The notes under the pieces are model-generated. The model did not search any database and had not been told where the DNA came from. It saw nothing but the letters and a program-made list of their open reading frames with translations. From a bacterium BMS3Abin14 (lineage in GTDB: Bacteria; BMS3Abin14), in the NCBI GenBank assembly GCA_002897695.1, contig BDTG01000043.1, positions 7,934-71,933 of the forward strand: a stretch of DNA of 64,000 nucleotides. The letters run 5' to 3'. The translations under genes were made by a program, and so were the position numbers. Positions 4,084 to 50,696 of this stretch are shown here, one piece after another (the stretch's first letter is position 1; each line of letters begins with the position of its first letter).

Positions 4084-4281
4084 TCAGTACGATTTTCCTT
4101 CGTCAAGGAGTTCGCAAAGGACCATTCGAACTCCGCAGTCCGGGCACCTGGGGATTTCTTCCTTGGGAAGGTAGATGATCGCTGTCCGGCCGCACTTGGG
4201 ACATTTCACCTGAACGGCCTCGGCTTTTTCACGCAACCCAACACCTCCTTCTTCCTTATGAAAATATATCATCGCTGTCAT
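4084..4281 (-). CDS. Small zinc-ribbon protein (two CxxC pairs), hypothetical
   Basis: 65 aa; CPKCG…CPDCG. Confidence 0.45.
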   Translation of the reverse strand: MTAMIYFHKEEGGVGLREKAEAVQVKCPKCGRTAIIYLPKEEIPRCPDCGVRMVLCELLDEGKSY

Positions 4282-7266: not shown

Positions 7267-7296
7267 CACTCTGGACTCTGGACTCTGGACTCTCCC
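7267..7296 (-). repeat. (GTCCAGA)3 tandem heptamer repeat, antisense orientation
   Basis: ccactctggactctggactctggactctcc on + strand; followed by a 9-bp GC stem-loop at 7292-7330. Confidence 0.7.
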
Positions 7297-7352: not shown

Positions 7353-10016
7353 ATGCCTGGGTTGAAGATCCTTGTCATTGAGGATGACCAGTTTTTTCAG
7401 CAATATGTCAACGACCTCCTGCAGGATTTTAACGTTGACCTTATTAACGCCATGGATGGCGAGGAAGGGCTTCTCCTTGCCCAATCGGAGAAGCCTGACC
7501 TGATCCTTACCGACATTGAAATTCCTAAAATCCAGGGATTTGTCCTGTTGAACCAGTTAAAGGAGATGCCTCAGACAGCCGATATTCCCGTGGTCCTCAT
7601 GTCCGGGAAGGTGGAAAAGGACCTTCTTGACAAGCATTCACGGCTGAGCGTTCACGCCGAAGGGTACCTCCTGAAGCCTTTTTCCCGGGCTGAGCTCCAC
7701 GGAGAAATCACCAGAGTCATGGGGCCGGATGCCCTGACGGCGGACGGAGTTTCCGGTGATGCTTCCGCAGAAGAATCACTGCCCGTGGCGCCTGCCCCCG
7801 TCTTGCCCCCCACCGCTGAAGGGGCCGGGATTAAGAAACGATCCAGGCCGCTGGTCCTTGTGGTTGATGATTCCTCCTATGTTTTAATCCAGACAAGCGA
7901 TCTCTTAAAGGAAGCCGGGTTGGATGTCGATGTTGCCATGGATGGGGATGCAGGCCTTGCCAAATGCATGGAGATCAGGCCGGACATCGTTCTCCTGGAT
8001 GTGCAGATGCCTTCAAGCAACGGTTTCATCGTCTGTGAGACGCTTAAGAAAAACCCGGACACGAGAACAATTCCAGTAATTCTCATGTCGGCAGTGGTTG
8101 ATACTGATTCATTTGAACGGCATTCCAGGCTGAAATACCATGCCGACGCCTATCTGCAGAAGCCCTTTAAGAGGGCCGAACTGCTGGATCTGATTTTCGG
8201 GCACCTTGCGATGGATCCATCGTCGGACGGAGTGCAGAGCAGGACCGGTTTTCTTTTTCAGGATGAAAACAGATTGCCGGTGGAACAGTCGGAAAGGGAA
8301 ACCCGGTTGGCTGTCAGGCTCGCCGAAATTGAAGGCAAACTTAATGAGGCGGCTGAATTGCTGGAATCGCACCGATCCCGGGAGGAGGCTTTCCAAAAGG
8401 AGATCGATAATCTTCGGAAGGATAATGATCAGTTTGCCGAGGAACGGAAAGAAGAACTTCGCCAATGGGAGGATCGTAGAAGACGGCTTGTTGAAAAAGT
8501 CACAATTGCTTCCAGACGTGCAGAAGAGGCAGTCGGGGAAGCCGAGGAGATCAGGAACAATGGCCTGAAGCTGAAAATGGACATGGAAGCAGCCCTTATG
8601 GCCAAGGCCGAAATAGAGGAACAGGCCAAATCTGTAGTTGAGGGCATGAAGAATAGTCTGGGCGGCGCCGAATCGGATGATGGCCTTGCTCGTCTCGGCA
8701 AGGAGAATATTGAGCTGCGGAGCCGTCTGGCTGAGGCAGGGGCCGGAGCAGCAAGCCTGGTGCGGCTGCAGTCCGATCTGGACCGGGCCAGGGAGGAAAA
8801 CCGTGAGCTCAGGGAGTCCATGTCTTCCATGCCGGACCGCTCGGGCTTGAATGAGGAAATAAAAAACCTCCAGGAGCAACTGAAAGCTGCCAACGCCGGG
8901 ACCACCGCCGGCAACGAGGAGAAACTTGGACTTCAATCCACCATCGATTCACTGCATGCCGAGAAGGGGAAAGCTCGGGAAGAGGAAAAAAAGGCAGCTG
9001 AAAAAATGGCCGAGGCCCTCGATGATTTTAACCGGATCCGGGTGGAGGCTGAGAATTTAAGAGCACAACTGGCCGAGGCTCAGCAATTGGCCCTTCAGAC
9101 GGAGACACTGGAGAAAGAGCTGGATTCCCTGAGAACGACGGCAGGGGAAGCCAAGGGGTTGCGGGACCTCAATGGAAAATTGCGTGCTGAACTGGAAGGG
9201 CTAAAGCAATCCTGCGCGGCCCTTTCCGAAAGCCTGGAGCACGAACGCGAGAAAATGTCCATTGCTCAGAAAGAGGCCGAATTTGCCCGAAAGGAGTTGG
9301 AAGGTGCGCAGGAGGAAAGAAAACGTTCTGCCGGGCTGAAAAGGGATCTTGAGGAGAAGACGAACAGGTTGGAGACATTGCAGGCTCAAAGCCGGATACT
9401 GGAAAAGGAAAATCATCTTTTGCAGGAGCGCCTCCAGGCCGGAATTCAATCGGGCGGCGTTTCGCTTCAGGCGGGGCAGGCCAACCCTCAGGAGGAACTC
9501 CTTTCCAGCCGGTTAAGCCAGTTGGAGCAGGTCCTGAGGCGAACCGTAGGTGATGCCCAAGCTGTTCTCATGGATCAACAGGGTAAGGAGAAGGGGCTTG
9601 AGGAGAAGATAAACACCCTTGTGAATACCCTTGAGGCTGAACGGAAAGAGCATGGAAAAGAAAGGGAGGAATGGCGTTCCCGTGAAGTCGACCTCAAAAA
9701 TAGCATGGAGGAATTTTTTGATGAGCGCAGCAGACGGATGGGGGAGGAATTGTCACGGCTTTACCCCATTCCCGTCGCAAGGGCGCAGCGCCCCCTTGAG
9801 GTAGTTCGTCCGGGCCGCCGATTTGGATCTTTTGCCCTCATTGGCCTGCTTTTGCTGATAGCCATTCTCCTGGGCTACCTGGTGATCTCACGATTACCGG
9901 AGAAAAAACTCCCCGCCGGCCAGGGGAGGCTTCAGGGACAGACTATGATATTACCACATGGCCCAGGGCGGCCCGACCCCGGCCAGGGCATAATACAGCA
10001 ACCCGTCAATTGTTGA
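7353..10016 (+). CDS. Tandem response-regulator receiver (REC-REC) protein with ~550-aa coiled coil and C-terminal transmembrane anchor
   Basis: Two CheY-like domains each with a phospho-acceptor Asp (LILTDIEIP; IVLLDVQMP) and K (LLKPF / LQKPF). Residues ~295-830 are heptad-rich, E/K/R/L/A-rich. C-terminal hydrophobic FGSFALIGLLLLIAILLGYLVI. Confidence 0.85.
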   Translation: MPGLKILVIEDDQFFQQYVNDLLQDFNVDLINAMDGEEGLLLAQSEKPDLILTDIEIPKIQGFVLLNQLKEMPQTADIPVVLMSGKVEKDLLDKHSRLSVHAEGYLLKPFSRAELHGEITRVMGPDALTADGVSGDASAEESLPVAPAPVLPPTAEGAGIKKRSRPLVLVVDDSSYVLIQTSDLLKEAGLDVDVAMDGDAGLAKCMEIRPDIVLLDVQMPSSNGFIVCETLKKNPDTRTIPVILMSAVVDTDSFERHSRLKYHADAYLQKPFKRAELLDLIFGHLAMDPSSDGVQSRTGFLFQDENRLPVEQSERETRLAVRLAEIEGKLNEAAELLESHRSREEAFQKEIDNLRKDNDQFAEERKEELRQWEDRRRRLVEKVTIASRRAEEAVGEAEEIRNNGLKLKMDMEAALMAKAEIEEQAKSVVEGMKNSLGGAESDDGLARLGKENIELRSRLAEAGAGAASLVRLQSDLDRAREENRELRESMSSMPDRSGLNEEIKNLQEQLKAANAGTTAGNEEKLGLQSTIDSLHAEKGKAREEEKKAAEKMAEALDDFNRIRVEAENLRAQLAEAQQLALQTETLEKELDSLRTTAGEAKGLRDLNGKLRAELEGLKQSCAALSESLEHEREKMSIAQKEAEFARKELEGAQEERKRSAGLKRDLEEKTNRLETLQAQSRILEKENHLLQERLQAGIQSGGVSLQAGQANPQEELLSSRLSQLEQVLRRTVGDAQAVLMDQQGKEKGLEEKINTLVNTLEAERKEHGKEREEWRSREVDLKNSMEEFFDERSRRMGEELSRLYPIPVARAQRPLEVVRPGRRFGSFALIGLLLLIAILLGYLVISRLPEKKLPAGQGRLQGQTMILPHGPGRPDPGQGIIQQPVNC

Positions 10017-10143
10017 TGATTTTGCAAAAAGTCATCGATAATCTCCCTCTCGCTCTCTATGGGAGAGGGTCAGGGTGAGGGCTTGGAACCGGGTGGATTT
10101 ACCAGGGACTTTTAACGAGTCCATCAACACGTCGAGGTTATCG

Positions 10144-11955
10144 ATGGACAGGATTCAGGACCTGCTCAGTCAGGTAAGGAAAAATCCTAATCGCCCCGAC
10201 CTTCACAGCAGCCTTGGGAGGCTGTATCTTCAGAGGGGCGACAGGGTTGCTGCATCGAAACACTTTCTTTCCTCTGCAAGGCTCTTCGCCGACAGGAGAA
10301 GTCCATCCCGAAACATCAACAAGGCTGTGGCATCCCTGAGAAAATTGATCCGCGATTTTCCCGAAAATCATGACTCGTATTATCTGCTGGCTGATCTTCA
10401 TCTGGAAATGGAAGATACGGAATCGGCCATCGTTATTTATCGTTCCCTCGCCGATATATACCAGAGGGACGGAAAGCTCCTCATGGCTGTTTCGGTATAC
10501 GACAAGATAACCAACTCCGATCCTGAAAATATGGATGGGTGGATAAAGTTTGCGGACCTGAATAAAGAGGCGGGTATGCCCTTCCACTCATCACATTCCT
10601 ATATGCGGGCTGCGTTCCTGAGCTCCGGCATGGGCAGATCGTCCGAGGAGTACGATCTTGCCCTGAGAGCGCTTAAGGTGGACCCGGAAAACAAGCCCGC
10701 GCTTGAGTTGATAGGCCGCCTCATAAAAGAGGGCAATGGGGCAAAACATGATATGGAAGAATTGGTTTCCCTGTCAAGGGAACTGGACAGAGATGGCCAT
10801 TCGGAGCAGGCTCTGACCCTCATTTCTATGCTGGAAAGCGCTTCCGGGGAGCAACGATTTGCCGTCATGGCCGCACAGATGCGTGAGAGGTTGGGCAAGG
10901 ATGGAACACCGGAGACGGAAATTGCCCATCGTAATAAATCATTTTCAGGCAAGTACTCCGGCATGAAGGTTCTCATTGTCGATGATGAGAGGGAAATCAT
11001 TCTTCTGCTTGAACAGATACTCAAGGAGGAGGGATTTCAGGTTCTGATGGCCAGGGATGGTCAACAGGGATACGACATTTTCATGCGTGAAAGGCCTCGT
11101 CTGGTGGTCTCGGATGCGATGTTGCCCAAACTGCACGGCTTTGAACTGTGCAAGAGAATAAAGGAGGAAGCCGGCGAGTCCACAAGGGTGATGATCCTGA
11201 CTGCGGTGTACAAGAAGTACAAATACAAGGGCAAGGTAGAGAAAGAATATGGCGTTGATGAGTATCTGGACAAACCTTTCCAGATCACGGAGTTTATTGA
11301 CACCCTGTATCGAATGGCCAAGGCGGTATCCGGCAAGCCGGACATGAAAAATGCTGCCCTCGATAATGGGAAAAATTCGGCCGAAGGTCTTTTTTTCCTG
11401 ATTGCAGGGGATAATGAGGAGCTTCTTTCCGAGGTCTCGTCCTTTTGCGACCGGAAAGGCTGTGCGTTCAAGGCTGTTCGGGATGCAAAGTCCATGATCT
11501 CTTTCCTCGAGGGAGTAGTGCCGGACATCCTGCTGGTGACCGATCAGCTGCGTGATCTGGCGCCCCCCGCAGCTGCCTGGCTGGTTGAAAGGGTGTTGGG
11601 TATTCGATCTGCCACGAGGGTGTTCATCACAGGAAGCGCCATTCCCGGGGAACGGGACTCCTCCGACTTTCATCACACTGTTTCGGCGCCCGTTAATTTT
11701 GAAACTCTCAATGCAATCGTCCGGTTGCACAGAGGTGCCGATGCCCGTACCGGCCTGAGGGGAAAAGAGAAAAAAATCGGGGTAGACGGAAGACGGATGG
11801 AGGCATTGATCAGGAGCAAGGTCGAGAGGGTATTGAAGAGCCAATATCAGCTGGAACACTACTACACCGGAAAGATCCAGAAGCTGGAGGATGAACTCGG
11901 GGCTATCAAGGCCAGGGGCAAAGGGAAAGACACGGCCAGGGGAAACGGCCAATGA
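10144..11955 (+). CDS. TPR-repeat protein with central receiver (REC) domain and C-terminal degenerate receiver-like domain
   Basis: TPR-like N-terminal half. REC block KVLIVDDEREII…VVSDAMLPKLHGFELC…YLDKPF. Alternative GTG start at 10075 directly after the upstream terminator hairpin; ATG at 10144 preferred. Confidence 0.75.
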   Translation: MDRIQDLLSQVRKNPNRPDLHSSLGRLYLQRGDRVAASKHFLSSARLFADRRSPSRNINKAVASLRKLIRDFPENHDSYYLLADLHLEMEDTESAIVIYRSLADIYQRDGKLLMAVSVYDKITNSDPENMDGWIKFADLNKEAGMPFHSSHSYMRAAFLSSGMGRSSEEYDLALRALKVDPENKPALELIGRLIKEGNGAKHDMEELVSLSRELDRDGHSEQALTLISMLESASGEQRFAVMAAQMRERLGKDGTPETEIAHRNKSFSGKYSGMKVLIVDDEREIILLLEQILKEEGFQVLMARDGQQGYDIFMRERPRLVVSDAMLPKLHGFELCKRIKEEAGESTRVMILTAVYKKYKYKGKVEKEYGVDEYLDKPFQITEFIDTLYRMAKAVSGKPDMKNAALDNGKNSAEGLFFLIAGDNEELLSEVSSFCDRKGCAFKAVRDAKSMISFLEGVVPDILLVTDQLRDLAPPAAAWLVERVLGIRSATRVFITGSAIPGERDSSDFHHTVSAPVNFETLNAIVRLHRGADARTGLRGKEKKIGVDGRRMEALIRSKVERVLKSQYQLEHYYTGKIQKLEDELGAIKARGKGKDTARGNGQ

Positions 11956-16161: not shown

Positions 16162-16194
16162 AGTCCAGAGTCCAGAGTCCAGAGGGAGAAAGAG
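16162..16194 (+). repeat. (GTCCAGA)3 tandem heptamer repeat immediately downstream of the spoT stop
   Basis: agtccagagtccagagtccagagggagaaagag, 8 nt after the stop codon. Confidence 0.75.
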
Positions 16195-35463: not shown

Positions 35464-35493
35464 AGTCCAGAGTCCAGAGAGAAGAAAGGCGGA
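35464..35493 (+). repeat. (GTCCAGA)2 heptamer repeat in the glyQ-glyS spacer
   Basis: cagtccagagtccagagagaag; a degenerate copy gtccaacgtccagcgg lies at 35439-35454. Confidence 0.65.
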
Positions 35494-39771: not shown

Positions 39772-40431
39772 ATGAAAACAGGGATAAACAGGATAAAAAG
39801 GGAACGGGGAATTGCCGCGGGCCTTTCATCGCCCTGGATACCCGGTGTCTGGGCCCACCCCCTCACCCACACGGATCCGGTAGTATCCCACGGCCAGTTC
39901 AAGGGCACCCCTGACGAGACTGTTTGCATCAACTGCCATGATGTCAACAACCAGTTCGGCAACATGCCCACGCCGTTCTGTCACAACTGCCATGGAAGTT
40001 CCCATAGCGTTCCCTCTCTGGACCACAACCAGGTTGCGCCGCTGCAGGTGGATTTCGATGGGAACTGTTCCGGTTGCCACAGTATCGACGGTTCTGCCCA
40101 GTCATTCGCCCCCGCGTGTACCACCTGCCACAAGGGGGGAAGCCCCTACATCTACACTAACTGCAGGTCCTGCCACGGAAAACCCCCCGACGGCGGAGCC
40201 CCCGTATACAGTAATTTCCCCAATCTGCAGGGGAAGCATGACAAACACAAAAGCGTCGCCACCTGTTCCGACTGCCACAGCGGCGGCGGATCGGGCGCGG
40301 GTCTCAACCACGGTTATGACAACATTGTGAACCTCCAGGCGCCTTCTGGAATCACCTTTTCTCCGGGGAGCGGCAACGTAACCTGTGCCGGTACGTGCCA
40401 CGAGAATCACAACAACCGACAATGGTACTGA
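39772..40431 (+). CDS. Multihaem c-type cytochrome (6 CxxCH plus one CxxxCH)
   Basis: CINCH, CHNCH, CSGCH, CTTCH, CRSCH, CSDCH and CAGTCH; weakly hydrophobic N-terminal region. Confidence 0.75.
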   Translation: MKTGINRIKRERGIAAGLSSPWIPGVWAHPLTHTDPVVSHGQFKGTPDETVCINCHDVNNQFGNMPTPFCHNCHGSSHSVPSLDHNQVAPLQVDFDGNCSGCHSIDGSAQSFAPACTTCHKGGSPYIYTNCRSCHGKPPDGGAPVYSNFPNLQGKHDKHKSVATCSDCHSGGGSGAGLNHGYDNIVNLQAPSGITFSPGSGNVTCAGTCHENHNNRQWY

Positions 40432-40520
40432 ACCACACCCTGTCGATGACATATGGGTTGAGTTGTGTGACGACCCGGCAGTGGATAGCGAAGGAGGAAG
40501 CTTCGCCAGGAAGCGAAGGA

Positions 40521-40597
40521 TGGTGCCCCCGGCAGGACTCGAACCTGCGGCCCCAGGATTAGGAATCCTGTGCTCTATCCTGCTGAGCTACGAGGGC
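40521..40597 (-). tRNA. tRNA-Arg (anticodon CCT), CCA encoded
   Basis: Reverse complement folds as a cloverleaf: acceptor GCCCTCG/CGGGGGC, D-stem GCTC/GAGC, anticodon stem CAGGA/TCCTG with loop TTCCTAA, T-arm GCAGG-TTCGAGT-CCTGC, discriminator A and CCA. Confidence 0.85.
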
Positions 40598-40806
40598 ATT
40601 TGAAGCCTGAAAACGAGTAATGGAAACTAGCACTCAATAATACCGGTGTCAATGCAGGTGCAGCCCCGCAACCCATGCCGGATCAGCATTCTCCGGTGTG
40701 TAACCGACAATTCTCTCCTTGACCATCCCTGGATTTACATATATTTTCCCAAGTTAGCAAATATGTTAATTACTGAAATTTCGGGTCATCGCAAAAACGA
40801 GTATTT

Positions 40807-40830
40807 GAAGACTTTTTACGACCCTGTCAG
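40807..40830 (-). repeat. Family-2 motif copy (reverse orientation), 62-85 nt upstream of the UDP-sugar dehydrogenase gene
   Basis: gaagactttttacgaccctgtcag is the reverse complement of ctgacagggtcgtaaaaagtcttc. Confidence 0.65.
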
Positions 40831-40891
40831 TATGTGACTGAAAACTTTTTTCTCGCATCCGTTTGTCACACACATTAACCGGAGACCAACC

Positions 40892-42199
40892 ATGTCGAAT
40901 CTAGCTGAGCTGAAAAAAAAGATTGAAACCCGAACCGCGGTGTGTGCGGTAATCGGCCTGGGATATGTGGGCCTTCCCCTGGCCGTGGAACTTGCACTTG
41001 CCGGTTTCAATGTTGTCGGGATAGACAACGACCCATCCAAAGCCGCCCGCGTCCTGGAAGGGGAGTCGTACATACCGGACGTGCCCTCCGATGTCCTTAA
41101 AAAGGTCACTGAATCAGGCGCCTTTTCCGCAACCGTCGATTTTTCCGTCCTCTCGGATTGCGACACCGTCAACATCTGTGTGCCGACTCCCTTGAACAAG
41201 ACCAGGGATCCGGATATCTCCTTTATTGTCGACAGCCTCGAGGGGATAAAACCTCATGTTCACTCGGGGATGATGATAATTCTGGAAAGTACCACCTACC
41301 CCGGGACCACCGATGAGATCGTTGTGCCTGCCGTTACGGGGACAGACCTGAAGTTGGGGAAGGACATCTTTGTCGCATTCTCACCGGAAAGGGTGGATCC
41401 GGGGAACCCGACATTCAATACCAGGAACATCCCTAAGGTGGTAGGCGGCGCAACCTCCAAATGTACTGAAGTCGCGGTCCTCTTTTACAGGCAGTTTCTG
41501 GAAAAGGTCTTTCCTGTGAGCACCACGGCCGTCGCCGAGATGGTGAAAATCCACGAGAATACCTTCAGAAGTGTTAATATCGGTCTGGTCAACGAACTGG
41601 CCCTCATGTGCGACCGGCTGGAAATCGATGTCTGGGAGGTCATCGAAGGCGCTTCAACCAAACCTTTCGGGTTCCTTCCGTTCTATCCCGGCCCCGGCCT
41701 CGGGGGACACTGCATACCTATCGACCCCTATTACCTCTCCTGGAAGGCCCGTTCGGTAGGTTTCGAGGCCAGATTTATCGAACTGGCAGGGCAAGTCAAC
41801 AGTTTCATGCCCACCCACGTGGTTTCCAGAGCGGTTGACGCCCTTAACGATGTCGGCAAAGCGTTAAAAGGCGCCCGCATCGTGATTTTGGGGGTGGCGT
41901 ACAAGAAAAATATCGACGACCTGCGTGAATCGCCTGCTCTGGACATCATGAATCGACTGAGTGATAAAGGGGTTCAGCTTTCCTTTTCCGATCCATACAT
42001 CCCCACCCTTGACATCGGGGAACGTTCTTTCACCGCAGTTGAGGCTACGCCTGACCTCCTGCAGATGGCCGATCTCGTGATCATCGTCACCGATCACGAC
42101 CTGTTCAATTACGACATGATCGTGTCAAACGCACCCCTCATACTCGACACGAGAAATGCGCTCAAGGGAAAGAACGGGCCGAAGATCTGGAGAATCTAG
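40892..42199 (+). CDS. Nucleotide-sugar dehydrogenase, UDP-N-acetyl-D-glucosamine 6-dehydrogenase-like (WbpO/TviB family)
   Basis: UDPG/MGDP dehydrogenase family with N-terminal extension before GLGYVG, as in WbpO/TviB-type enzymes. Confidence 0.8.
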   Translation: MSNLAELKKKIETRTAVCAVIGLGYVGLPLAVELALAGFNVVGIDNDPSKAARVLEGESYIPDVPSDVLKKVTESGAFSATVDFSVLSDCDTVNICVPTPLNKTRDPDISFIVDSLEGIKPHVHSGMMIILESTTYPGTTDEIVVPAVTGTDLKLGKDIFVAFSPERVDPGNPTFNTRNIPKVVGGATSKCTEVAVLFYRQFLEKVFPVSTTAVAEMVKIHENTFRSVNIGLVNELALMCDRLEIDVWEVIEGASTKPFGFLPFYPGPGLGGHCIPIDPYYLSWKARSVGFEARFIELAGQVNSFMPTHVVSRAVDALNDVGKALKGARIVILGVAYKKNIDDLRESPALDIMNRLSDKGVQLSFSDPYIPTLDIGERSFTAVEATPDLLQMADLVIIVTDHDLFNYDMIVSNAPLILDTRNALKGKNGPKIWRI

Positions 42200-42215
42200 A
42201 TATTGGAGGCCGCGT

Positions 42216-43169
42216 ATGAATGATCGGGTGCTCGTTACCGGCGGTGGGGGGTTCATCGGATCGCACCTGGTCCGTGGGCTCCTGTCTGAGGGTTACAGGG
42301 TATCCGTGCTCGATAACTTCATGACAGGACACAGGAAAAACCTCCAGGAAGTTGCGGGCGATATCGAAGCCGTCTGGGAATCGGACGTAAGGGACCTTCA
42401 ATCCTGTCTGAAAGCCGTGAAGGGCGTCACCGCCGTGTTCCATCTCGCGGCCCTCGCCTCGGTTTCGGGAAGCATTGAGGAACCGATCCTCTCCCATGAG
42501 ATAAACCTCACCGGCACCCTGAACATGCTTCAGGCCGCACGGAAAAATAGCGTTCAGGGATTCATCTTTTCCTCATCCGCGGCTGTTTACGGGGATGGTC
42601 CCGCCATGCCGAAAAAAGAGAACATGAAACCTGATCCGATGTCCCCTTATGCACTTCACAAGCTTGCCGGGGAATACTACTGCAGGCAATATTCAGCTCT
42701 TTTCGGTCTAAAGACAGCATCCCTGAGATACTTTAACGTATTCGGCGCCCGGCAGGACCCTGAAAGTCAGTACGCCGCCGCGGTTCCCATTTTCATGTCG
42801 GCCATCCTGAAGGACGAACCGGTCCATATCTACGGGGATGGGGAGCAAACCAGGGACTTTGTCTACGTCGGGGACGTGGTACGGGCCAATCTTCAGGCCC
42901 TCAGGTCCGAGGGGCTCAACGGACAGGTGATGAACATCGCCGGTGGAGAGAAGGTCACTATTAACGGGCTCCTGAAGGCTCTCGAAGCCGTCTCGGGCGT
43001 ATCGGCCGAAAAGGTGTACTCCGATCCACGGCCAGGTGACATAAGACACTCCAGGGCTGATATTTCAGCGGCTTCCGCCCATATCGGCTACAAACCGGCA
43101 GTTGGTCTCGAGGATGGTTTACGCAGGACCTTTCAATGGTTCCGCAAGGCCCGGTGGGCCGGGCAATGA
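42216..43169 (+). CDS. NAD-dependent epimerase, UDP-GlcNAc(A) C4-epimerase-like (WbpP/TviC family)
   Basis: GGGGFIGS Rossmann motif, YxxxK catalytic motif (YALHK); paired with the WbpO-like gene. Confidence 0.8.
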   Translation: MNDRVLVTGGGGFIGSHLVRGLLSEGYRVSVLDNFMTGHRKNLQEVAGDIEAVWESDVRDLQSCLKAVKGVTAVFHLAALASVSGSIEEPILSHEINLTGTLNMLQAARKNSVQGFIFSSSAAVYGDGPAMPKKENMKPDPMSPYALHKLAGEYYCRQYSALFGLKTASLRYFNVFGARQDPESQYAAAVPIFMSAILKDEPVHIYGDGEQTRDFVYVGDVVRANLQALRSEGLNGQVMNIAGGEKVTINGLLKALEAVSGVSAEKVYSDPRPGDIRHSRADISAASAHIGYKPAVGLEDGLRRTFQWFRKARWAGQ

Positions 43170-44275
43170 TCTCCCGCGACGGTTTCGCGCTGAAAGTCCT
43201 GAAGCACATGAAGAGCGCGCTCGTCGTCATTGACAGGGAGGGAAGTGTGCTTGTCCTGAACCGGTCTGCAAGAAAAATCCTCTCCCTCGGCAACGAGGAC
43301 ATCGCAATAGGGAAAAGCTGCAGAGATGTCTTTGCGGCCTACCCGTATCTTTCGGATCTGCTCATGACCTCCTTCGACATCCACACTCTGCCGGATCGAG
43401 CCGAGCTGGAATTGAAGGGGCGGCCTGCCGGAGACCGGAAGGTTGTAGGGTACACCCTTTCCCCGGTTTACGGGGACGATGGTGAACGGCTGGGAACGGC
43501 CCTGTTCTTCAAGGATCTTACTGAGGTTGAACGCCAGGAAACGAAGGAACGGATCAGGGATCGCCTTGTATCCCTGGGTGAGATGGCTGCCTGGCTCGCG
43601 CATGAGATACGCAACCCTCTTGCCGCCATCGAGGTATCCGCCGGCCTCCTTTTGAAGGATGAGAAGGATCCATCACGCACGGAATCCGTACGGGATATCC
43701 TTTCGGAAGTTAAAAGGCTCAATACGATTATTACCCAGACCCTGGATTTCGTCCGATCCAGGCCTTTGAACCTGCAGTACTGTGATCTCAACGCGGTGCT
43801 CACCGACACCCTGAATGAATGCCTCCAGGGCAGGAATGACATCGAAATTTCGCTCACATTGAACGATATCGGCCCCGTGCTCCTTGACACACCCCAGATC
43901 TCCCATGCGCTGGGAAACATCATTGTCAACTCCTGTGAGGCGATGCCCGATGGAGGTACATTGAGCGTGTCCATATACACAGTGCCTTCGGAAGCGGGAG
44001 GTCAGGTTCCCGAAACTTTCACGAATCATGTCGTACGGGAAATGGAGAACATCGTGGTGGAGATAGCCGATACGGGTGTCGGAATCCCGGAGGATGTGAT
44101 CGGCAAGGTCTTCACCCCTTTCTTTACTACAAAAAACGGTGGAACGGGGATCGGCATGTCCCTTGCCCAGAAAGTGGTTACGGAGCACTGGGGTATTCTG
44201 GACATTGAAAGCGCCTATGGAAAAGGGACCAAATTCAAGGTTATACTACCCAAATTCACATCTGTGGAGGGTTAG
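43166..44275 (+). CDS. Sensor histidine kinase (PAS - HisKA - HATPase_c), cytoplasmic
   Basis: H-box AHEIRNPL, N/G1/G2 boxes (…NSCEAM…, DTGVGI, GGTGIGMS). Start overlaps the epimerase stop (ATGA). Confidence 0.8.
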   Translation: MISRDGFALKVLKHMKSALVVIDREGSVLVLNRSARKILSLGNEDIAIGKSCRDVFAAYPYLSDLLMTSFDIHTLPDRAELELKGRPAGDRKVVGYTLSPVYGDDGERLGTALFFKDLTEVERQETKERIRDRLVSLGEMAAWLAHEIRNPLAAIEVSAGLLLKDEKDPSRTESVRDILSEVKRLNTIITQTLDFVRSRPLNLQYCDLNAVLTDTLNECLQGRNDIEISLTLNDIGPVLLDTPQISHALGNIIVNSCEAMPDGGTLSVSIYTVPSEAGGQVPETFTNHVVREMENIVVEIADTGVGIPEDVIGKVFTPFFTTKNGGTGIGMSLAQKVVTEHWGILDIESAYGKGTKFKVILPKFTSVEG

Positions 44276-44299
44276 ACAGCATTACAACAGGAGATTTGA

Positions 44300-45671
44300 C
44301 GTGGGCAGGTTTCTGATAGTGGAAGACCAGGCGGTGCTTCGCAAGGGCATCGTCAAGGTGTTTATTGCCGATGGTCACAATGTGGACGAGGCGGCAGATG
44401 GTGAGACAGCACTTCAATTGCTGTCCCGGTGGAATTACGATGTGGTGATCACGGACCTTAAACTTCCCGGGATCAGCGGGATGGAGGTCCTGAAGCATTC
44501 GAAGGCCAACGCTCCGGCCACCGACGTGTTGATCATGACCGCCTACGGGACCATCGAAACAGCCATCGAGGCCATGAAACTTGGGGCCTTTGATTTCCTG
44601 CAGAAGCCGTTCGGCATACCGGAGCTGGAAATGCGCGTTGAAAAGGCTCTGCAGCAGAGAATGCTGAAAAACGAGGTGGATTATCTGCGTCATGAGAGGG
44701 ATATCGTCTACAGGATTGAGGACTTTATCGGGGAGAGCCCGGCCATAAAGAAAGTTTACCGCGATGTATCCAGGGTGGCTCCATCCTCAACCAACGTCCT
44801 TATCACCGGTGAGACCGGGACCGGAAAAGAACTTATCGCCGGGGCGATCCATTACAACAGCCCAAGGGCAAAAAACAGCTTTATCAAGGTTAACTGCGCT
44901 GCCATCCCGGAAAACCTTCTTGAGAGCGAGCTGTTCGGCCATGAAAAGGGGGCGTTCACAGGTGCTGTCAACCAGAGAATAGGGCGTTTTGAACAGGCGA
45001 ACGGCGGGAGTATCCTCCTGGACGAGATCGGGGACATGAGCCCCCTTATTCAGGCCAAGATACTCCGTGTGATCCAGGACCGGCAGTTTGAAAGGCTCGG
45101 AGGCAATGCGGTCATTACGTCGGATGTGAGGATCATAGCGGCTACCAACAAGGACCTCGCCAGGGAGATGGAGATAGGTACATTCAGAGAGGATCTGTTT
45201 TACCGTTTGAATGTCGTTCACATCCCTCTTCCCTCCCTCAGGGAACGGCAGGGGGATATCCCCCTGCTCACGGATTTCTTTATCAAGCGCTTTAACGGGG
45301 AATTAAAGAGGGATGTCAAGGGTGTCGGTGAGCAGGCCATGAAGACCATGCTCAGCTACACATGGCCGGGAAACGTCCGGGAGCTGGAAAATGCACTTGA
45401 GCGAGCGGTTCTCATGTCTGACGGTGACTATCTGGATGTGTCGGACATTAATATCTCCGCCCCTGTCATGCCATTCAGGGATGTTCATACCCCCGGCACC
45501 TCCCCGCTCGATCTCAAGGACCTGGAAAAGGAGGCGGTCCTGGAGGCCCTGAGAAAGACTGACTATGTCCAGAAGGACGCCGCAGAGGTCCTCGGAATCT
45601 CAAAGAGGGTCATGCACTACAAAATCCAGCAGTTCGGCATCAAGCATCCCCGATGGATCAAAAACCGATAA
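44300..45671 (+). CDS. Sigma-54-dependent transcriptional regulator, NtrC-type (REC - AAA+ sigma54-activation - Fis HTH)
   Basis: REC with ITDLKLP; Walker [15 protein letters not shown], Walker [20 protein letters not shown]-terminal HTH; GTG start with RBS aggag. Confidence 0.9.
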
Positions 45672-45673
45672 CG

Positions 45674-45716
45674 AAAGTCCAGAGTCGAAAGTCCAGAGTC
45701 CAGAGGGGAAAAGCGG
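45674..45716 (+). repeat. (GTCCAGA) heptamer repeat cluster directly after the stop of EBP1
   Basis: gaaagtccagagtcgaaagtccagagtccagaggggaaaagcggg. Confidence 0.75.
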
Positions 45717-45992
45717 GCAATGCGCTGTAGGCTCTGGGCTATGGGTAAAGAGGTCCAGAAAACAATGTCCAATGACCAGCGATGTCATTGCGAGGAGCAT
45801 CGAGGGAAACGAGAGTGACGGTTTACCACGTCGAAGCCACAGGAGCGAAGACGGGCGGCAATCCAGAAGGCGGAACCTTTATAACATATTGACAACATGA
45901 CTGCCTAAAAGTTATTACAAAATTGAAACATCTCATGGAATTGTGTGCAGAAATCTGTTCTGCCGGGGGGCGAGGGGAGTCGGAAGTTGGCA

Positions 45993-47345
45993 ATGGTGCT
46001 GGTAGTAGAGGATGATCTTGATTTCAGGGAACTTGTGGCTGGAGTTCTGTCGGAAAACGGGTACAGGGTTGACGAGGCGCCTGACGGTGAGACGGCCCTC
46101 CAGCTGATCGGCAATACAAAGTATGACGTCATTATCTGTGACGTAAAGCTCCCGGGGATTTCCGGCATGGATGTGCTCCGGGAGGCCAAATCCCAGTCGC
46201 CAGACACTGAAGTCCTCATAATGACCAGTTACGGATCAGTGGACAGCGCCGTAAAATCCATGAAGATGGGCGGGTTCGATTATCTTCAGAAACCGTTTGG
46301 CCTTGCTGAACTTGAGATGAGGGTAGAAAAGGCGGTTCGCCACAGGATGCTCTGCAATGAGGTCTCCTATCTCAGGCACGAGCGTGACATCATATACCGG
46401 TTTGAGGACATCATCGGAAGGAGCCACTCGACCAGGGAGTTCCTGGAGGAGGCTGAACGCGCTGCGATGGTGGACGGCCCGGTCCTTCTTTACGGAGAGC
46501 CGGGAACCGGTCGAAAACTCATTGCGGGGGCGATCCATTACAACAGCGAACGTCATAGCGGGGGTTTTGTGCGTGTCAACAGCGCCGGCATGCGGGAAAG
46601 ATACCTTGCCGGCGACCTCTTCGGCCACGTACGGGGCGCTTTTGACGGCGCCGGCCGCGCCAGGACCGGGCGTTTCGAACAGGCCAATGACGGCACCATC
46701 CTCCTCGAGGAAATCTCCCATGTTTCCCTTGACAACCAGGACCGTATTCTCGAGTTTCTTGAAACCGGAAAACTCCTTCGGATCGGACACTCGAAGTCCA
46801 TTTCACTTGACGTCCGCCTTATTGTCACATCAAGCACGGACCTTGGAAAGAAGGTGCGCGAAGGGGGGTTCCGCGAGGAACTGTATTCATTGATATCTGC
46901 CACCACCATTCGGGTTCCCCCATTGAGAAGTCGAAAGGAAGACATTCCCCTCCTTGCCGAATATTTTTTGAGATCTCTTCCAAAAGAGCTTATGAAACAG
47001 GATGTTGTCAGTATCTCCTCCTCAGCTTTCGTGAAGCTCACAGAGTATCCATGGCCCGGGAATATCAGGGAATTGAAGAACGTTATCGAACGTTCCGTTC
47101 TGACCGGCACCGGGGAGATAATTGAGGCGTCGGACATCCAGCTGCCCGATGAGAATGTGGCTTCCTCAGGATACTCGGGACTGATTCTGAAAGAAATGGA
47201 GAAAGCCGCCGTTGTGGACGCACTGAGGAGAGCAAACTTCGTTCAGAAGGACGCCGCAAAGATACTGGGCATCACAAAAAGGGTGATGCACTACAAGATC
47301 CAACAGTTCGGGATCAAGCATCCCCGGTGGATTAAGAACAGATAA
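45993..47345 (+). CDS. Paralogous NtrC-type regulator with degenerate AAA+ motifs (putative ATPase-inactive pseudo-EBP)
   Basis: Same architecture and an almost identical C-terminal HTH (VQKDAA…[21 protein letters not shown]). Walker A GEPGTGRKL (K to R), GAFDGA in place of GAFTGA, Walker B ILLEEI (D to E). ORF opens at GTG 45945; ATG 45993 preferred. Confidence 0.8.
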   Translation: MVLVVEDDLDFRELVAGVLSENGYRVDEAPDGETALQLIGNTKYDVIICDVKLPGISGMDVLREAKSQSPDTEVLIMTSYGSVDSAVKSMKMGGFDYLQKPFGLAELEMRVEKAVRHRMLCNEVSYLRHERDIIYRFEDIIGRSHSTREFLEEAERAAMVDGPVLLYGEPGTGRKLIAGAIHYNSERHSGGFVRVNSAGMRERYLAGDLFGHVRGAFDGAGRARTGRFEQANDGTILLEEISHVSLDNQDRILEFLETGKLLRIGHSKSISLDVRLIVTSSTDLGKKVREGGFREELYSLISATTIRVPPLRSRKEDIPLLAEYFLRSLPKELMKQDVVSISSSAFVKLTEYPWPGNIRELKNVIERSVLTGTGEIIEASDIQLPDENVASSGYSGLILKEMEKAAVVDALRRANFVQKDAAKILGITKRVMHYKIQQFGIKHPRWIKNR

Positions 47346-47347
47346 AG

Positions 47348-47380
47348 AAAGTCCAGAACTGTTCTTCCCCTCTGGACTCT
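47348..47380 (+). repeat. GTCCAGA-derived hairpin directly after the stop of EBP2
   Basis: aaagtccagaactgttcttcccctctggactct forms an 8-bp stem AGTCCAGA/TCTGGACT. Confidence 0.7.
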
Positions 47381-47396
47381 TAATCAGGAGGTTAAA

Positions 47397-48704
47397 ATGC
47401 ACATTACAGTTATCGGAACCGGGTACGTCGGGCTGGTGACAGGAACCTGTTTCGCCGAGTTCGGGGTTGATGTTACCTGCGTGGACAACGATCCGGAGAA
47501 GGTCTCCATGCTCAAGAAAGGCAAGATCCCCATTTACGAGCCCGGGCTCGAGGAGATGGTGAGGAAAAATACTGATGAGGGGAGGCTGCACTTTTCCACC
47601 AATATCGTTGATGGAATTGAAGAATCCCTGGTTATCTTCATCGCTGTCGGAACGCCACCCCGGGAGGATGGAAGCGCCGATCTGACCTATGTGGAGGATG
47701 TGGCCGGCAGCATCGGGAAGAACATGAACGATTACAAGGTGATCGTTACCAAGAGCACAGTTCCGGTGGGAACAGGAGAGAGGATTCGGGAGATCATTTC
47801 CGGCTACAGGCCGGACAACGATTTTGATGTCGCCTCGAACCCGGAATTCCTGCGGGAGGGATCAGCTATCGAGGATTTCATGCGGCCTGACCGTATCGTT
47901 ATCGGGGCGGAAAGTTCCCAGGCCAAGGCCATTCTCAAGGACCTGTACAAGCCCCTGTATCTCATCGAAACGCCCTTTGTGATAACCAACGTCGTTACGG
48001 CCGAACTTATAAAATACGCCTCCAACGCCTTTCTGGCCACCAAGATCTCCTTTATTAACGAGATGGGAAATATCTGCGAGGCCATTGGAGGCGATGTCAA
48101 CGTTATTGCCAGAGCCATGGGGCTTGATGGACGGATCGGCCCGAAATTTCTTCATGCCGGACCGGGCTACGGGGGGTCCTGCTTTCCCAAGGACACCAGC
48201 GCCCTGACGCGGATCGCCAGGGAGGTGGGAGAGCCGACCGGAATCGTGGAATCGGTGATCAGGGTCAATGAGAAGCAGAAGATGAGAGCATTTGAGAAAG
48301 TCCTGCATGCCTCCGGCGGCTCGCTCATGGGAAAAACGGTCGCCCTTCTCGGCCTGGCGTTCAAACCCAATACCGACGATTTTCGGGATGCCCCCGCCGA
48401 GGTAATTATTCGGGGGATCACAGGTGGAGGCGGGAACGTGAAAGCATACGATCCCGCGGCCATGGGACAGGCAAGGGATGTCCTCGGCGACGATGGGATA
48501 AAATACTGCAAAAATGCCTATGATGCCGTTGAGGATGCCGATGTGATGGTAATCGTCACCGAGTGGAATCAATTTCGTCTCCTGAACCTGGCCAGGTGCA
48601 TGGAACTTATGAAGGAGCCTGTCCTCGTTGATCTCCGAAATGTCTGCGACCCGAATCTCACACGGGAGATGGGGTTTAAATACATATCCGTTGGAAGACC
48701 GTAA
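47397..48704 (+). CDS. ugd: UDP-glucose 6-dehydrogenase
   Basis: GTGYVG NAD motif; catalytic Cys region GGSCFPKD. Confidence 0.9.
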   Translation: MHITVIGTGYVGLVTGTCFAEFGVDVTCVDNDPEKVSMLKKGKIPIYEPGLEEMVRKNTDEGRLHFSTNIVDGIEESLVIFIAVGTPPREDGSADLTYVEDVAGSIGKNMNDYKVIVTKSTVPVGTGERIREIISGYRPDNDFDVASNPEFLREGSAIEDFMRPDRIVIGAESSQAKAILKDLYKPLYLIETPFVITNVVTAELIKYASNAFLATKISFINEMGNICEAIGGDVNVIARAMGLDGRIGPKFLHAGPGYGGSCFPKDTSALTRIAREVGEPTGIVESVIRVNEKQKMRAFEKVLHASGGSLMGKTVALLGLAFKPNTDDFRDAPAEVIIRGITGGGGNVKAYDPAAMGQARDVLGDDGIKYCKNAYDAVEDADVMVIVTEWNQFRLLNLARCMELMKEPVLVDLRNVCDPNLTREMGFKYISVGRP

Positions 48705-48709
48705 CCACC

Positions 48710-49693
48710 GTGGAAATACAGGCAAAAGACCCCGCTTCGGGGAGAATTGCACCCGGTAAGGTCCTCGTGACGGGCGGAGCGGGATTTATCGGATCCCATC
48801 TGTGTGAGAGACTGCTGGAGCTTGGCTGTGAGGTGGTATGCCTGGACAATTTCAACGATTTTTACGACCCGGCCATTAAGAGGCATAATATTGCCGGTCT
48901 GTTGGCGAATCCGGGTTTTTCCCTCCATGAGGGGGACATAAGGGATGTGACCCTTGTGAATACACTTTTCGAAGGGGAAAGGCCGGAAGCTGTGGCCCAC
49001 CTCGCCGCCATGGCCGGGGTCAGGCCCTCCATCGAGGAACCGGTTCTCTATTACGATGTCAACGTGACCGGGACTGCAGTCGTACTGGAGGCCGCAAGGA
49101 AGCAAGGGGCTTCCAATTTTATCTTCGGATCCTCTTCCTCGGTGTACGGGAGCCAGGAAAAGACACCCTTTAGTGAAAAGGACCCCGTGAGCCGTCCTAT
49201 CAGCCCTTACGCGGCATCCAAGGCGGCGGGAGAGCTTCTGTGCCACACCTGCCATCACCTTTTCGGTATGCCCATAACCTGTCTCCGCTTTTTCACCGTT
49301 TACGGGCCGAGGCAGAGGCCCGAGATGGCAATCCACCTTTTTGCGAAACTCATTAGAGACGGAAAAGCTGTTACCGTGTATGGTGATGGTCACAGCCGGA
49401 GGGATTATACATTCGTCGAGGATATTATTGACGGAATTGTGAGATCGCTTGAAAGGCCCCATGGATACGAGATCTTCAATCTCGGCGAGTCCAGGACCGT
49501 TGAGCTGCTTGAGTTGATCGGGTTGATCGAGAAGGGGGTCGGCCGCAAGGCAATTCTGAGGATGCTTCCGGTTCAGCCAGGTGATGTCCCTGTCACTTTC
49601 GCGGATATTGACCATGCCCGTTCTTCTCTGGGCTACAACCCCTCCACACCCATTGAGGAGGGAATCGAGAGATTCATCGAGTGGTTTTCTTGA
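48710..49693 (+). CDS. NAD-dependent epimerase, UDP-glucuronate 4-epimerase-like
   Basis: GGAGFIGS, YAASK catalytic motif; directly downstream of ugd. Confidence 0.75.
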   Translation: MEIQAKDPASGRIAPGKVLVTGGAGFIGSHLCERLLELGCEVVCLDNFNDFYDPAIKRHNIAGLLANPGFSLHEGDIRDVTLVNTLFEGERPEAVAHLAAMAGVRPSIEEPVLYYDVNVTGTAVVLEAARKQGASNFIFGSSSSVYGSQEKTPFSEKDPVSRPISPYAASKAAGELLCHTCHHLFGMPITCLRFFTVYGPRQRPEMAIHLFAKLIRDGKAVTVYGDGHSRRDYTFVEDIIDGIVRSLERPHGYEIFNLGESRTVELLELIGLIEKGVGRKAILRMLPVQPGDVPVTFADIDHARSSLGYNPSTPIEEGIERFIEWFS

Positions 49694-49747
49694 GAAAGCC
49701 ACGAATGGATTTTTTATGACCCTATCAAGACAAAAGGGAGTCGAGCC

Positions 49748-50026
49748 ATGTCATTCGATCGAAAAAACATATTGAAAGAGGCGAAATCCAAGGTCTTTGT
49801 TATTACGGAGCATTATGAATTCATAGGGCTGCTTCATCTCGTCAACATTGACCGGAGGGAAAGCGACGTCCTGAATGACGAAAAACCGTTCATCCACCTC
49901 ACGGATGTCGAGGTCAGGGTCAAGGCTACAGGCAAGAGCAGCCAGGTGCCTTTCGTGGCCATCAACAAAAGAAACGTCATCTGTGTTATCCCGTTTGAGT
50001 CAAGCAAAAGTACCCAGAAAGAGTAG
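49748..50026 (+). CDS. Hypothetical small protein (92 aa), lower GC than neighbours
   Basis: ORF with RBS gggag; no recognised domain. Confidence 0.35.
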   Translation: MSFDRKNILKEAKSKVFVITEHYEFIGLLHLVNIDRRESDVLNDEKPFIHLTDVEVRVKATGKSSQVPFVAINKRNVICVIPFESSKSTQKE

Positions 50027-50033
50027 CACGGGA

Positions 50034-50696
50034 ATGATAGACCTGCACGCCCACACCTTTGCCAGCGACGGTGAACTTCTACACTCGGAGCTCATCCGAC
50101 GGGCCATTTCGGCCGGGTATCGGGCCATCGGTATTACGGACCATGCTGATGAAACGAATTTGGAAGAGCTTGTGAGCCGGGCTGTCAGGGCATCGGACGC
50201 GTGGAAGGGCACAGCAAAGCTCCAGGTCGTTCCAGGTGTGGAGATTACCCACGTTCCCCCTGAAAGAATCCCCGGGTTAGCCGCAAGAGCCAGGGAATTG
50301 GGCGCGCTTCTGGTAGTAGTGCACGGAGAGACCATAACGGAGCCCGTTACTCCGGGAACCAACGCGGCCGCGGCCGGATGCCGGGATGTAGACATTCTGG
50401 CCCATCCCGGCCTTATTTCCAGGACAGATGCCGCACTGGCTGCTGAAAATGGGGTTTTCCTGGAGATTACCGCCAGACCGGGCCACTCTGCCGCCAATGG
50501 CCACGTGGCTGCTGTCGGAAGGGCCTCCGGGGCGCCTCTCGTTCTGAATACGGATACCCATGCTCCCGGCGATCTCATCAGCCTGGACATGGCTGCAATA
50601 ATTCTGGAGGCGGCGGGACTCGATTCCAGTGAGGGAGAAACCGTTATCCGGAATGCCGGCCGCCTTCTGAGCGCCATCATGGCGCACGGACGGTAA
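50034..50696 (+). CDS. PHP-domain metal-dependent phosphoesterase (histidinol-phosphatase family)
   Basis: N-terminal MIDLHAHT…SDG, internal ITDHAD, HGET, C-terminal …NTDTHAP histidine/aspartate motif set of PHP domains. Confidence 0.7.
   Translation: MIDLHAHTFASDGELLHSELIRRAISAGYRAIGITDHADETNLEELVSRAVRASDAWKGTAKLQVVPGVEITHVPPERIPGLAARARELGALLVVVHGETITEPVTPGTNAAAAGCRDVDILAHPGLISRTDAALAAENGVFLEITARPGHSAANGHVAAVGRASGAPLVLNTDTHAPGDLISLDMAAIILEAAGLDSSEGETVIRNAGRLLSAIMAHGR

Follow-up and report, generated by a model that had tools for sequence, protein, structure and literature searches.

Degenerate sigma54-activator paralogues beside nucleotide-sugar genes: a conserved clade with a candidate sigma54-independent function

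In more than 97% of enhancer-binding proteins (EBPs) the GAFTGA motif carries a threonine, which is required for the contact with sigma54 (PMC3105312). The atypical EBPs VpsR, NtrX, HupR, TyrR, PhhR, and HsfA lack GAFTGA, have altered Walker motifs, and either work at sigma70 promoters or repress; VpsR in particular is devoid of ATPase activity, cooperates with the sigma70 form of RNA polymerase, and controls polysaccharide genes (PMC6158489). A protein with losses of this kind, here termed EBP2, is encoded in a stretch of 64,000 nucleotides of the bacterium BMS3Abin14 (contig BDTG01000043.1, positions 7,934 to 71,933; the whole stretch is referred to below as the window), where its gene follows that of a canonical NtrC1-type sigma54 activator, EBP1. 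The exact EBP2 protein is found in public records under “bacterium BMS3Abin14” and in an independent second metagenome-assembled genome (MAG), and its public names are ZraR or “sigma-54-dependent Fis family regulator”. In the analysis described here, the most likely reading of EBP2 is a response regulator of the “atypical” kind that functions on its own, and not a neighbor's copy that broke recently.

V. cholerae VpsR, Brucella NtrX, and R. capsulatus HupR resemble EBP2 in having the NtrC-family domain order, i.e. receiver, AAA+ domain, and helix-turn-helix (HTH), together with the loss of GAFTGA and non-consensus Walker motifs, and NtrX (5m7n) and VpsR (7v2b) also turn up as structural matches of EBP2. 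However, EBP2 is orthologous to none of the atypical EBPs named above, its closest solved relative being the canonical NtrC1, and the substitutions are different ones: Lys to Arg and Asp to Glu in EBP2, as compared with N-D in the Walker B of VpsR. It also departs from the VpsR class in that a canonical sister gene is adjacent in part of its family, and in that its function is deduced from sequence.

The best match of EBP2 among the structures of the Protein Data Bank, both by sequence (E = 5e-97) and by fold, is Aquifex aeolicus NtrC1 (4l4u, 1ny5). The NtrC1-like receiver and coiled-coil linker of EBP2 imply an AAA+ assembly that is repressed by the unphosphorylated receiver dimer. Whereas NtrC1 has the full catalytic set and GAFTGA, EBP2 is without the Walker A Lys, the Walker B Asp, the sensor I Asn, the equivalent of R299, and the Thr of the L1 loop. 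The c-di-GMP-switched FleQ of P. aeruginosa would be alike in that sigma54-independent control, in its case of sigma70-dependent exopolysaccharide genes, is exerted through an AAA+ EBP scaffold; in contrast to EBP2, it remains a functional ATPase and sigma54 activator. The Arg/Asn following Walker A, the c-di-GMP binders of FleQ, are Gly/Ala in both EBP1 and EBP2 (LIAGAIH), for which reason a c-di-GMP site of the FleQ type was set aside.

Tandem EBP paralogues in the same orientation are also known from Pseudomonas syringae, where HrpR and HrpS have been described in terms of “partial paralogue degeneration”, the two subunits differing in how they handle nucleotide, and where a Thr-to-Ala change in the GAFTGA of either partner abolishes activation (PMC3105312). 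In its tandem arrangement and partial degeneration, the pair is like EBP1/EBP2. It differs in that the Walker A Lys and the GAFTGA Thr are still present in HrpR and HrpS alike, whereas EBP2 has neither and lacks all that activation requires; in that HrpR and HrpS are co-dependent, both being required for activation; and in that they have no receiver domains. The pairing of EBP1 with EBP2, moreover, does not appear to be conserved across the family. As far as found in the literature, the family of EBP2 is undescribed, although EBP-derived regulators working without sigma54 are already known.

Motor elements of EBP2 and of its clade

Both proteins have the same architecture (Response_reg, Sigma54_activat, AAA_lid_14, and HTH_8 in Pfam) and align along their whole length with 51% identity (E = 1e-169), the Sigma54_activat match (PF00158) scoring 240 bits for EBP1 and 161 bits (E = 2.4e-47) for EBP2. 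EBP1 carries every canonical element of a sigma54 activator, including GETGTGKE, GAFTGA, and LLDEIG, in agreement with the original prediction made from the DNA letters. That prediction had further proposed that in EBP2 the Walker A Lys is replaced by Arg, GAFTGA by GAFDGA, and the Walker B Asp by Glu, all of which can be read directly from the sequence; it understated the degeneration, as the sensor I Asn is also changed, to Ser, and so is the arginine-finger segment, in which alignment to A. aeolicus NtrC1 places Leu300 of EBP2 at the position of the trans arginine finger R299. The equivalent of NtrC1 R293 is retained in EBP2 and gone from most of the degenerate clade described below. EBP2 is thereby devoid of several features of a sigma54 activator, namely the Walker A Lys, a Walker B of the hhhhDE form, the GAFTGA Thr, the sensor I Asn, and the trans finger. 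It displays instead the features of an atypical EBP, i.e. EBP architecture without GAFTGA and with non-consensus Walker A and Walker B, and that of the NtrC1/DctD type, in which a phosphorylatable receiver is joined to the AAA+ domain via a coiled-coil linker.

The receiver, the AAA+ scaffold, and the HTH are retained, as had also been proposed. The sensor II Arg, the acidic pocket of the receiver with Asp50 and Lys100, and the linker are present as well, and the last 21 residues are identical between EBP1 and EBP2. An AlphaFold2 model built with 19 clade sequences has a mean predicted local distance difference test score (pLDDT) of 84.8 and contains a predicted linker helix at residues 104-129. 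Its AAA+ domain superposes on those of NtrC1, ZraR, and FlrC with a root-mean-square deviation of 1.5-2 Å and a template-modeling (TM) score of ~0.93, so that, as judged from the model, the AAA+ scaffold of EBP2 is intact.

The substitutions are not peculiar to the window. A motif table of the 120 best homologues of EBP2 contains a degenerate clade with 61 full-length members, all 61 of which have the Walker A Arg (hence “Rx”). The Walker B Glu is found in 98% of this clade, and 92% have Ser at the sensor I position. No member retains the GAFTGA Thr, for which most have D, E, or P, and most members are without either arginine of the FRxDLYYRL segment. Over 19 clade members, which are 46-83% identical to EBP2, 96 columns are invariant, among them D10, D50, and K100 of the receiver. 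The check set by the original prediction, whether orthologues have an intact Lys, GAFTGA, and DE, goes in its favor: these are not intact, and the degeneration itself is conserved.

In a neighbor-joining tree (100 bootstraps), the Rx clade is monophyletic with 100% support and is joined, also at 100%, by a basal subclade (“Kx”; P0033, P0049, P0062, and P0066), with the EBP1 clade as the sister of both together (97%). The Kx proteins have lost GAFTGA and the sensor I Asn and keep the Walker A Lys, most of them with the Walker B Asp. Because this basal group has lost GAFTGA yet keeps the ATPase motifs, the loss of the motor looks stepwise, with sigma54 contact given up before catalysis. The Walker A and Walker B states co-vary, K occurring with D and R with E. 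Since these co-varying exchanges, Lys to Arg and Asp to Glu, both conserve charge, they suggest that the nucleotide pocket of the EBP2 family has been maintained and not abandoned. The lone exception to the co-variation is P0051 (L086, 5247-6611), which combines R with D (IFIDEV) and which may be an intermediate or may indicate that the two changes are not strictly coupled.

The degeneration is also not recent. Compared with an 82%-identical orthologue (in L105), the ratio of nonsynonymous to synonymous substitution (dN/dS) of EBP2 is 0.16 overall and 0.18 in the AAA+ domain, the value for a pair of EBP1 orthologues being 0.09; between conserved degeneration and recent decay, this speaks for the former. 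The description of EBP2 as a pseudo-enzyme version of a sigma54 activator is accordingly well supported at the sequence level by 61 homologues with the same substitutions and by purifying selection. What is not supported is the notion of a recent tandem duplication. Synonymous sites between EBP1 and EBP2 are saturated (proportion of synonymous differences, pS, 0.78), which makes the duplication ancient, and the split of EBP2 from the EBP1 clade predates the diversification of the whole degenerate clade. Gene conversion was considered as the source of the identical C-termini and is ruled out, as pS is 0.72 in that segment; with synonymous sites saturated there too, the identity is held by selection.

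The family appears to be a narrow one, since among cluster representatives at 50% identity only 3 of the 150 best matches have the Walker A Arg. A profile search of genome contigs with the clade alignment, keyed on patterns common to all EBPs (YxWPGN[IV]RE), gave canonical EBPs alone among the matches listed, at ≤40% identity. Other EBP homologues related to the family have degenerated along lines of their own. In P0140 and P0086, Walker A is GEGGTG(R/K)R, the L1 loop is shortened, and Walker B reads L(S/G)D; P0146 has GEPGTGRE, GGFARA, and LFLKEI. Motor function may have been lost more than once around the EBP2 family.

Locus, promoter, and genomic neighborhood

The region from 40.9 to 53 kb of the window is a run of same-strand genes (Table 1), and the rest is ordinary chromosome (relA/spoT, recG, an EF-G paralogue, glyS, tRNA-Arg). 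From UGDa through EPIa and the histidine kinase (HK) gene to EBP1, successive genes overlap or abut; as UGDa-EPIa overlaps the downstream HK gene, UGDa-EPIa and HK-EBP1 probably constitute one operon. The HK is the probable cognate kinase of EBP1. The gap between EBP1 and EBP2 measures 321 nt and that between EBP2 and UGDb 51 nt. EBP1 begins, like its orthologues, at GTG 44301; the original prediction had placed its start at 44300, one base out of frame. The deposited start of EBP2 is ATG 45993, orthologues beginning two codons earlier (ATG-GCT-GTA); the start homologous to their ATG is TTG 45987, for which the GGGGAG Shine-Dalgarno sequence is better spaced.

Table 1. Features of the EBP1/EBP2 region and of the heptamer repeats (window coordinates unless a related locus is named)
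Feature	Position	Strand	Basis or location
UGDa, TviB-like nucleotide-sugar 6-dehydrogenase	40892-42199	+	open reading frame (ORF), NCBIfam
EPIa, TviC/GalE-like epimerase	42156 or 42216-43169	+	ORF, NCBIfam
Soluble PAS-HisKA-HATPase histidine kinase, 379 aa, AtoS-like	43136-44275	+	Pfam, NCBIfam
EBP1, canonical NtrC1-type sigma54 activator	44301-45671	+	ORF, Pfam, motifs
EBP1 Walker A, GETGTGKE	44808-44831		
EBP1 L1 loop, GAFTGA	44949-44966		
EBP1 Walker B, LLDEIG	45015-45032		
EBP1 sensor I, IAATN			
GTCCAGA tandem heptamer array	45676-45705	+	just 3' of EBP1 stop
Predicted sigma70-type promoter of pseudo-EBP gene	45889-45928	+	conservation in orthologous loci
EBP2, degenerate (pseudo-ATPase) EBP paralogue	45987 or 45993-47345	+	ORF, Pfam, motifs
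EBP2 receiver Asp50	46134-46157		
EBP2 Walker A, GEPGTGRK (R174)	46494-46517		
EBP2 L1 loop, GAFDGA (D218)	46635-46652		
EBP2 Walker B, LLEEIS (E239)	46701-46718		
EBP2 sensor I, IVTSS (Asn to Ser 281)	46821-46835		
EBP2 arginine-finger segment, FREELYSLIS; trans finger lost	46869-46898		
EBP2 sensor II, WPGNIRELKN; Arg kept	47052-47081		
EBP2 HTH and tail	47277-47342		
Inverted GTCCAGA heptamer pair (AGTCCAGA, 13 nt, TCTGGACT)	47350-47378	.	EBP2-UGDb gap
UGDb, TuaD-like UDP-glucose 6-dehydrogenase	47397-48704	+	ORF, NCBIfam
EPIb, NAD-dependent epimerase	48710-49693	+	ORF, NCBIfam
DUF6812, PHP, TPR, and indolepyruvate:ferredoxin oxidoreductase (IOR) genes		+	3' of EPIb
Other GTCCAGA tandem arrays	1046-1075, 16162-16184, 35464-35479	+	intergenic
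Other GTCCAGA tandem arrays	1237-1259, 7268-7293	-	intergenic
Heptamer sites in relatives	L084 4052-4144; L086 6611-7510; L090 1635-1895; L093 1424-2135; L095; L098		

The DNA upstream of the genes of EBP2 and its orthologues (“pseudo-EBP” genes) cannot be aligned between genomes except for one block, TTGACA-N18-TATTACAAAWWTGAAA, which is present in 15 non-redundant orthologous loci at 62-107 nt from the start codon (287 in L086). In the window, TTGACA at 45889-45894 is followed, after an 18-nt spacer, by TATTACAAAATTGAAA at 45913-45928, a 16-mer unique in the window, 80 nt before the ATG. By its sequence the block is a sigma70-type -35/-10 promoter (TTGACA-N18-TATTAC) of the pseudo-EBP gene, and its conserved extension past the -10 may be either an operator or a discriminator/start region. 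The 16-mer that follows the -10 makes an unconvincing operator for the invariant HTH: its dyad symmetry is weak, limited to some loci, and set in AT-rich sequence. A simple promoter scan passed over the conserved block, as it demands a T at -7, and a scan for promoters and terminators gave no intrinsic terminator between EBP1 and EBP2. Sites for sigma54 were sought as well. TGGCAC-N5-TTGCW with up to 2 mismatches had 10 matches in the window, where 25 were expected, and none in the relevant intergenic region; near-consensus sites are rarer in the window than in shuffled sequence; and scoring of GG-N10-GC upstream of EBP2, UGDa, and UGDb, in the window and in related loci, revealed nothing conserved.

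Related loci were collected with a DNA pattern specific for the Walker A Arg, which on metagenome contigs identified 18 loci, 16 of them with family members, and exact-protein look-ups supplied longer contigs. In every locus long enough to show it, the pseudo-EBP gene is followed by UGDb-EPIb(-DUF6812-PHP-TPR-IOR). On its upstream side, as far as the contigs reach, come EPIa, HK-EBP1, or inserted genes, and the UGDa-EPIa pair is found upstream in relatives too, such that the conserved place of the family is between two pairs of UDP-uronic-acid genes, each a dehydrogenase and an epimerase. HK-EBP1 lies between EPIa and the pseudo-EBP gene in four genomes, those of the window, L084, L109, and CP070719.1 (L108; 2.78 Mb), in the last of which other genes, over ~13 kb, and an assembly gap separate HK-EBP1 from the pseudo-EBP gene; the four form one subclade with 98% bootstrap support. 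At 8 of the 12 informative loci HK-EBP1 is not at this position, 7 of them (L086, L088, L094, L095, L097, L098, and L099) belonging to the GETGTGR(L/Q) subclade and one (L106) being a Kx locus. An HK of 368-379 aa precedes the EBP1-clade genes in L084 (68% identical to the HK of the window), L107, L108, and L109, that of L107 being a 379-aa PAS kinase which, with its EBP1-clade gene, lies in an unrelated housekeeping context. One lineage has thus genuinely inherited the pairing of EBP1 with EBP2, yet, with eight loci lacking HK-EBP1 at the position and the L107 pair located elsewhere, it does not appear to be a constant of the family. The EBP1 orthologue of L108 (~9150-9260) is annotated as partial (383 aa), which is due to a run of N, i.e. 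an assembly gap, at its 3' end and not to a biological truncation.

In L084 (~4120-4146), as well as in L086, L091, and L095, UGDb has a conserved leader, CTGAAAAACCGGAGGTTTTTCCATG, directly before its ATG, in which GAAAAACC and GGTTTTTC can pair across the Shine-Dalgarno sequence GGAGG and could form a hairpin sequestering the ribosome-binding site. The window is without this leader and reads ...AATCAGGAGGTTAAAATG there. An Rfam scan of 40300-50200 matched a tRNA alone and no riboswitch or leader.

Both EBP genes are followed by GTCCAGA (at 45677, 45691, and 45698 after EBP1 and at 47351(+) and 47371(-) after EBP2), as originally noted, but the proposal that the heptamer was duplicated along with the gene as a 3' element does not stand. 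The window contains 40 copies, as against 9.8 expected, a count reached by no shuffle. Arrays are often located right behind stop codons, the one at 16162 directly 3' of relA/spoT, and relatives carry other heptamers at homologous positions (ACCAGAA, GTTCCAR, GTTTTGR, CTCAAAC, ACGTTGG, GTGCACY/CTGATAA). GTCCAGA is thus a lineage-wide intergenic repeat, neither a relic of the duplication nor part of the regulator, with arrays that resemble the heptameric STRR repeats of cyanobacteria. A role as a shared binding site of the regulators was likewise rejected, the repeat being genome-wide and different between related genomes. In L086, L093, and L095, an opposite-strand gene has been inserted between the pseudo-EBP gene and UGDb, with inverted arrays of one and the same heptamer on either side of it; its product belongs to PF05635 (23S rRNA intervening-sequence protein (IVP)/four-helix bundle); the inverted pair behind EBP2 resembles an unoccupied version of this insertion site. 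A literature search found no paper linking heptamer arrays to PF05635 genes.

Just upstream of the UGDa operon are genes of a small multiheme c-type cytochrome with c3/c7-like CxxCH repeats (39772-40431) and of tRNA-Arg(CCT) (minus strand, 40521-40597). Further away, an 887-aa response-regulator-type protein (7353-10016) with two receiver domains and no further Pfam match adjoins a second, 626-aa one (10075-11955) with TPR repeats and a receiver.

Candidate functions of EBP2

On balance, the probable reading is that EBP2 is an atypical EBP-like, sigma54-independent response regulator in an old, conserved clade. In this model, the degenerate clade would descend from an EBP1-like sigma54 activator that gave up ATP hydrolysis, through the changes of Walker A Lys to Arg, Walker B Asp to Glu, and sensor I Asn to Ser and the loss of the trans finger, as well as sigma54 contact, through replacement of the GAFTGA Thr by Asp, Glu, or Pro, while the receiver, the NtrC1-type coiled-coil linker, the AAA+ fold, and the Fis-type HTH would have been kept. 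The result would be a phosphorylation-controlled DNA-binding regulator that does without sigma54 and serves as an activator or repressor at sigma70 promoters, the AAA+ domain acting as an oligomerization scaffold, perhaps with nucleotide binding or sensing. Its targets would be the flanking nucleotide-sugar genes and possibly its own promoter, and the UGDb-EPIb neighborhood, constant in the loci compared, is a likely regulatory target of the pseudo-EBP. In the genome of the window, EBP1 and EBP2, having the same recognition helix, may meet on the same DNA sites, which would be an add-on and no core function of the family.

It has to be noted that several observations weigh against this reading. 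Regulation of the UDP-sugar genes by EBP2 is argued from synteny, and the target site is putative. HK-EBP1 lies directly upstream in three genomes of the subclade of the window, and ~13 kb away in the fourth, and there the trees of EBP1 and EBP2 mirror each other, as a functional partnership would give. The “solo” loci are mostly short metagenomic contigs, such that a partner elsewhere in the genome is possible, and in L107 an EBP1-clade kinase-regulator pair does occur in an unrelated context. Finally, Arg and Glu are conservative replacements, with which slow turnover of ATP would be possible as far as the sequence goes.

In a different model, for genomes that keep both genes, EBP2 would be the dedicated partner of EBP1, forming mixed dimers or rings with it on shared enhancers by way of the identical HTH and the near-identical receiver-linker and acting as an anti-activator or dominant-negative brake. 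In a mixed ring, each interface containing EBP2 would be without cis catalytic residues or the trans finger, and without the loop for sigma54 contact. In its favor, EBP1 and EBP2 are direct same-strand neighbors in the window, L084, and L109 (with ~13 kb between them in CP070719.1), the two subtrees mirror each other, the proteins agree fully in recognition helix and C-terminal tail and almost fully in the linker (ELEMRVEKA...YLRHERD), the C-terminal identity is due to selection and not to gene conversion, and HrpR/HrpS provide the precedent of tandem EBP paralogues in one hetero-hexamer (PMC3105312). Nevertheless, this model is considered rather unlikely. Eight loci of other subclades have no HK-EBP1 at the position, the pseudo-EBP gene has its own conserved sigma70-type promoter, and the locus contains no sigma54 promoter for EBP1 that could be found. 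The shared sequences are moreover weak evidence: the linker (ELEMRVEKA...YLRHExD), near-identical in the two proteins, and the HTH and tail (VQKDAAxLLGISKRV(I/M)...), common to both, are also common to more distant canonical EBPs, some 45% identical. As the distant canonical EBPs have it too, the identity of the HTH is no sign of a special pair; judging from these alignments, identical DNA-reading residues are to be expected subfamily-wide and do not single out the tandem pair. The related proposal, in which EBP2 has a sigma70 promoter and a kinase of its own and its ratio to EBP1, controlled in this way, works as an analogue brake on the sigma54 motor, is similarly doubtful.

A third possibility is that EBP2 is a phosphate sink, its receiver being a decoy that drains the adjacent HK. 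The conserved Asp50, Lys100, and acidic pocket would suit such a role, as would the position of the gene next to an HK-regulator pair in the genome of the window. However, the AAA+ domain and the HTH, for which a sink has no need, are under strong purifying selection, and most family members have no adjacent kinase. The alpha1 helix of the receiver is the main determinant of kinase-regulator specificity in two-component systems, and this helix is EDQxVLRKG(I/V)V throughout the EBP1 clade, as opposed to EDDxDFR(E/D)L(I/L) in the degenerate clades. This consistent difference between clades argues that EBP1 and EBP2 answer to different kinases and against a simple phosphate sink, which is thus quite improbable.

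No more credible is the idea that EBP2, in spite of its variant motifs, has remained a functional sigma54 activator. It would agree with the PF00158 match of 161 bits, with the public annotation as ZraR or a sigma-54-dependent regulator, and with the conservative nature of the K-to-R and D-to-E exchanges and the retained sensor II Arg. Against it, five independent functional elements are changed together, the degenerate clade has no member with the GAFTGA Thr, the trans arginine finger is a Leu, and no -24/-12 promoters were found nearby. As for a functionless, decaying duplicate or a sequencing artifact, which the lost catalytic residues of EBP2 might bring to mind, it is already refuted by the conservation data, given the intact ORF, the identical protein in an independent MAG assembly, the dN/dS of 0.16, the 96 invariant columns in 19 members, and the conserved promoter.

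Significance of the degenerate family

The EBP2 family is a well-delimited and selection-maintained addition to the small set of atypical EBPs, and its canonical sister, the Kx intermediate, and the fully degenerate form share their linkage to this nucleotide-sugar locus. The series from canonical through GAFTGA-less with intact ATPase motifs to fully degenerate makes the order in which a sigma54 motor is converted testable, and it might record how activators dependent on sigma54 become regulators of the sigma70 type. The co-varying change of Lys/Asp to Arg/Glu constitutes a natural experiment on whether an AAA+ pocket can persist as a nucleotide-binding switch without catalysis. We know of no earlier natural dominant-negative EBP subunit, a role that EBP2 would be the first to fill if it mixes with EBP1. 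In practical terms, with the present label of ZraR or sigma-54-dependent regulator, reconstructions of sigma54 regulons in the uncultured bacteria that carry it would wrongly count EBP2 as an activator.

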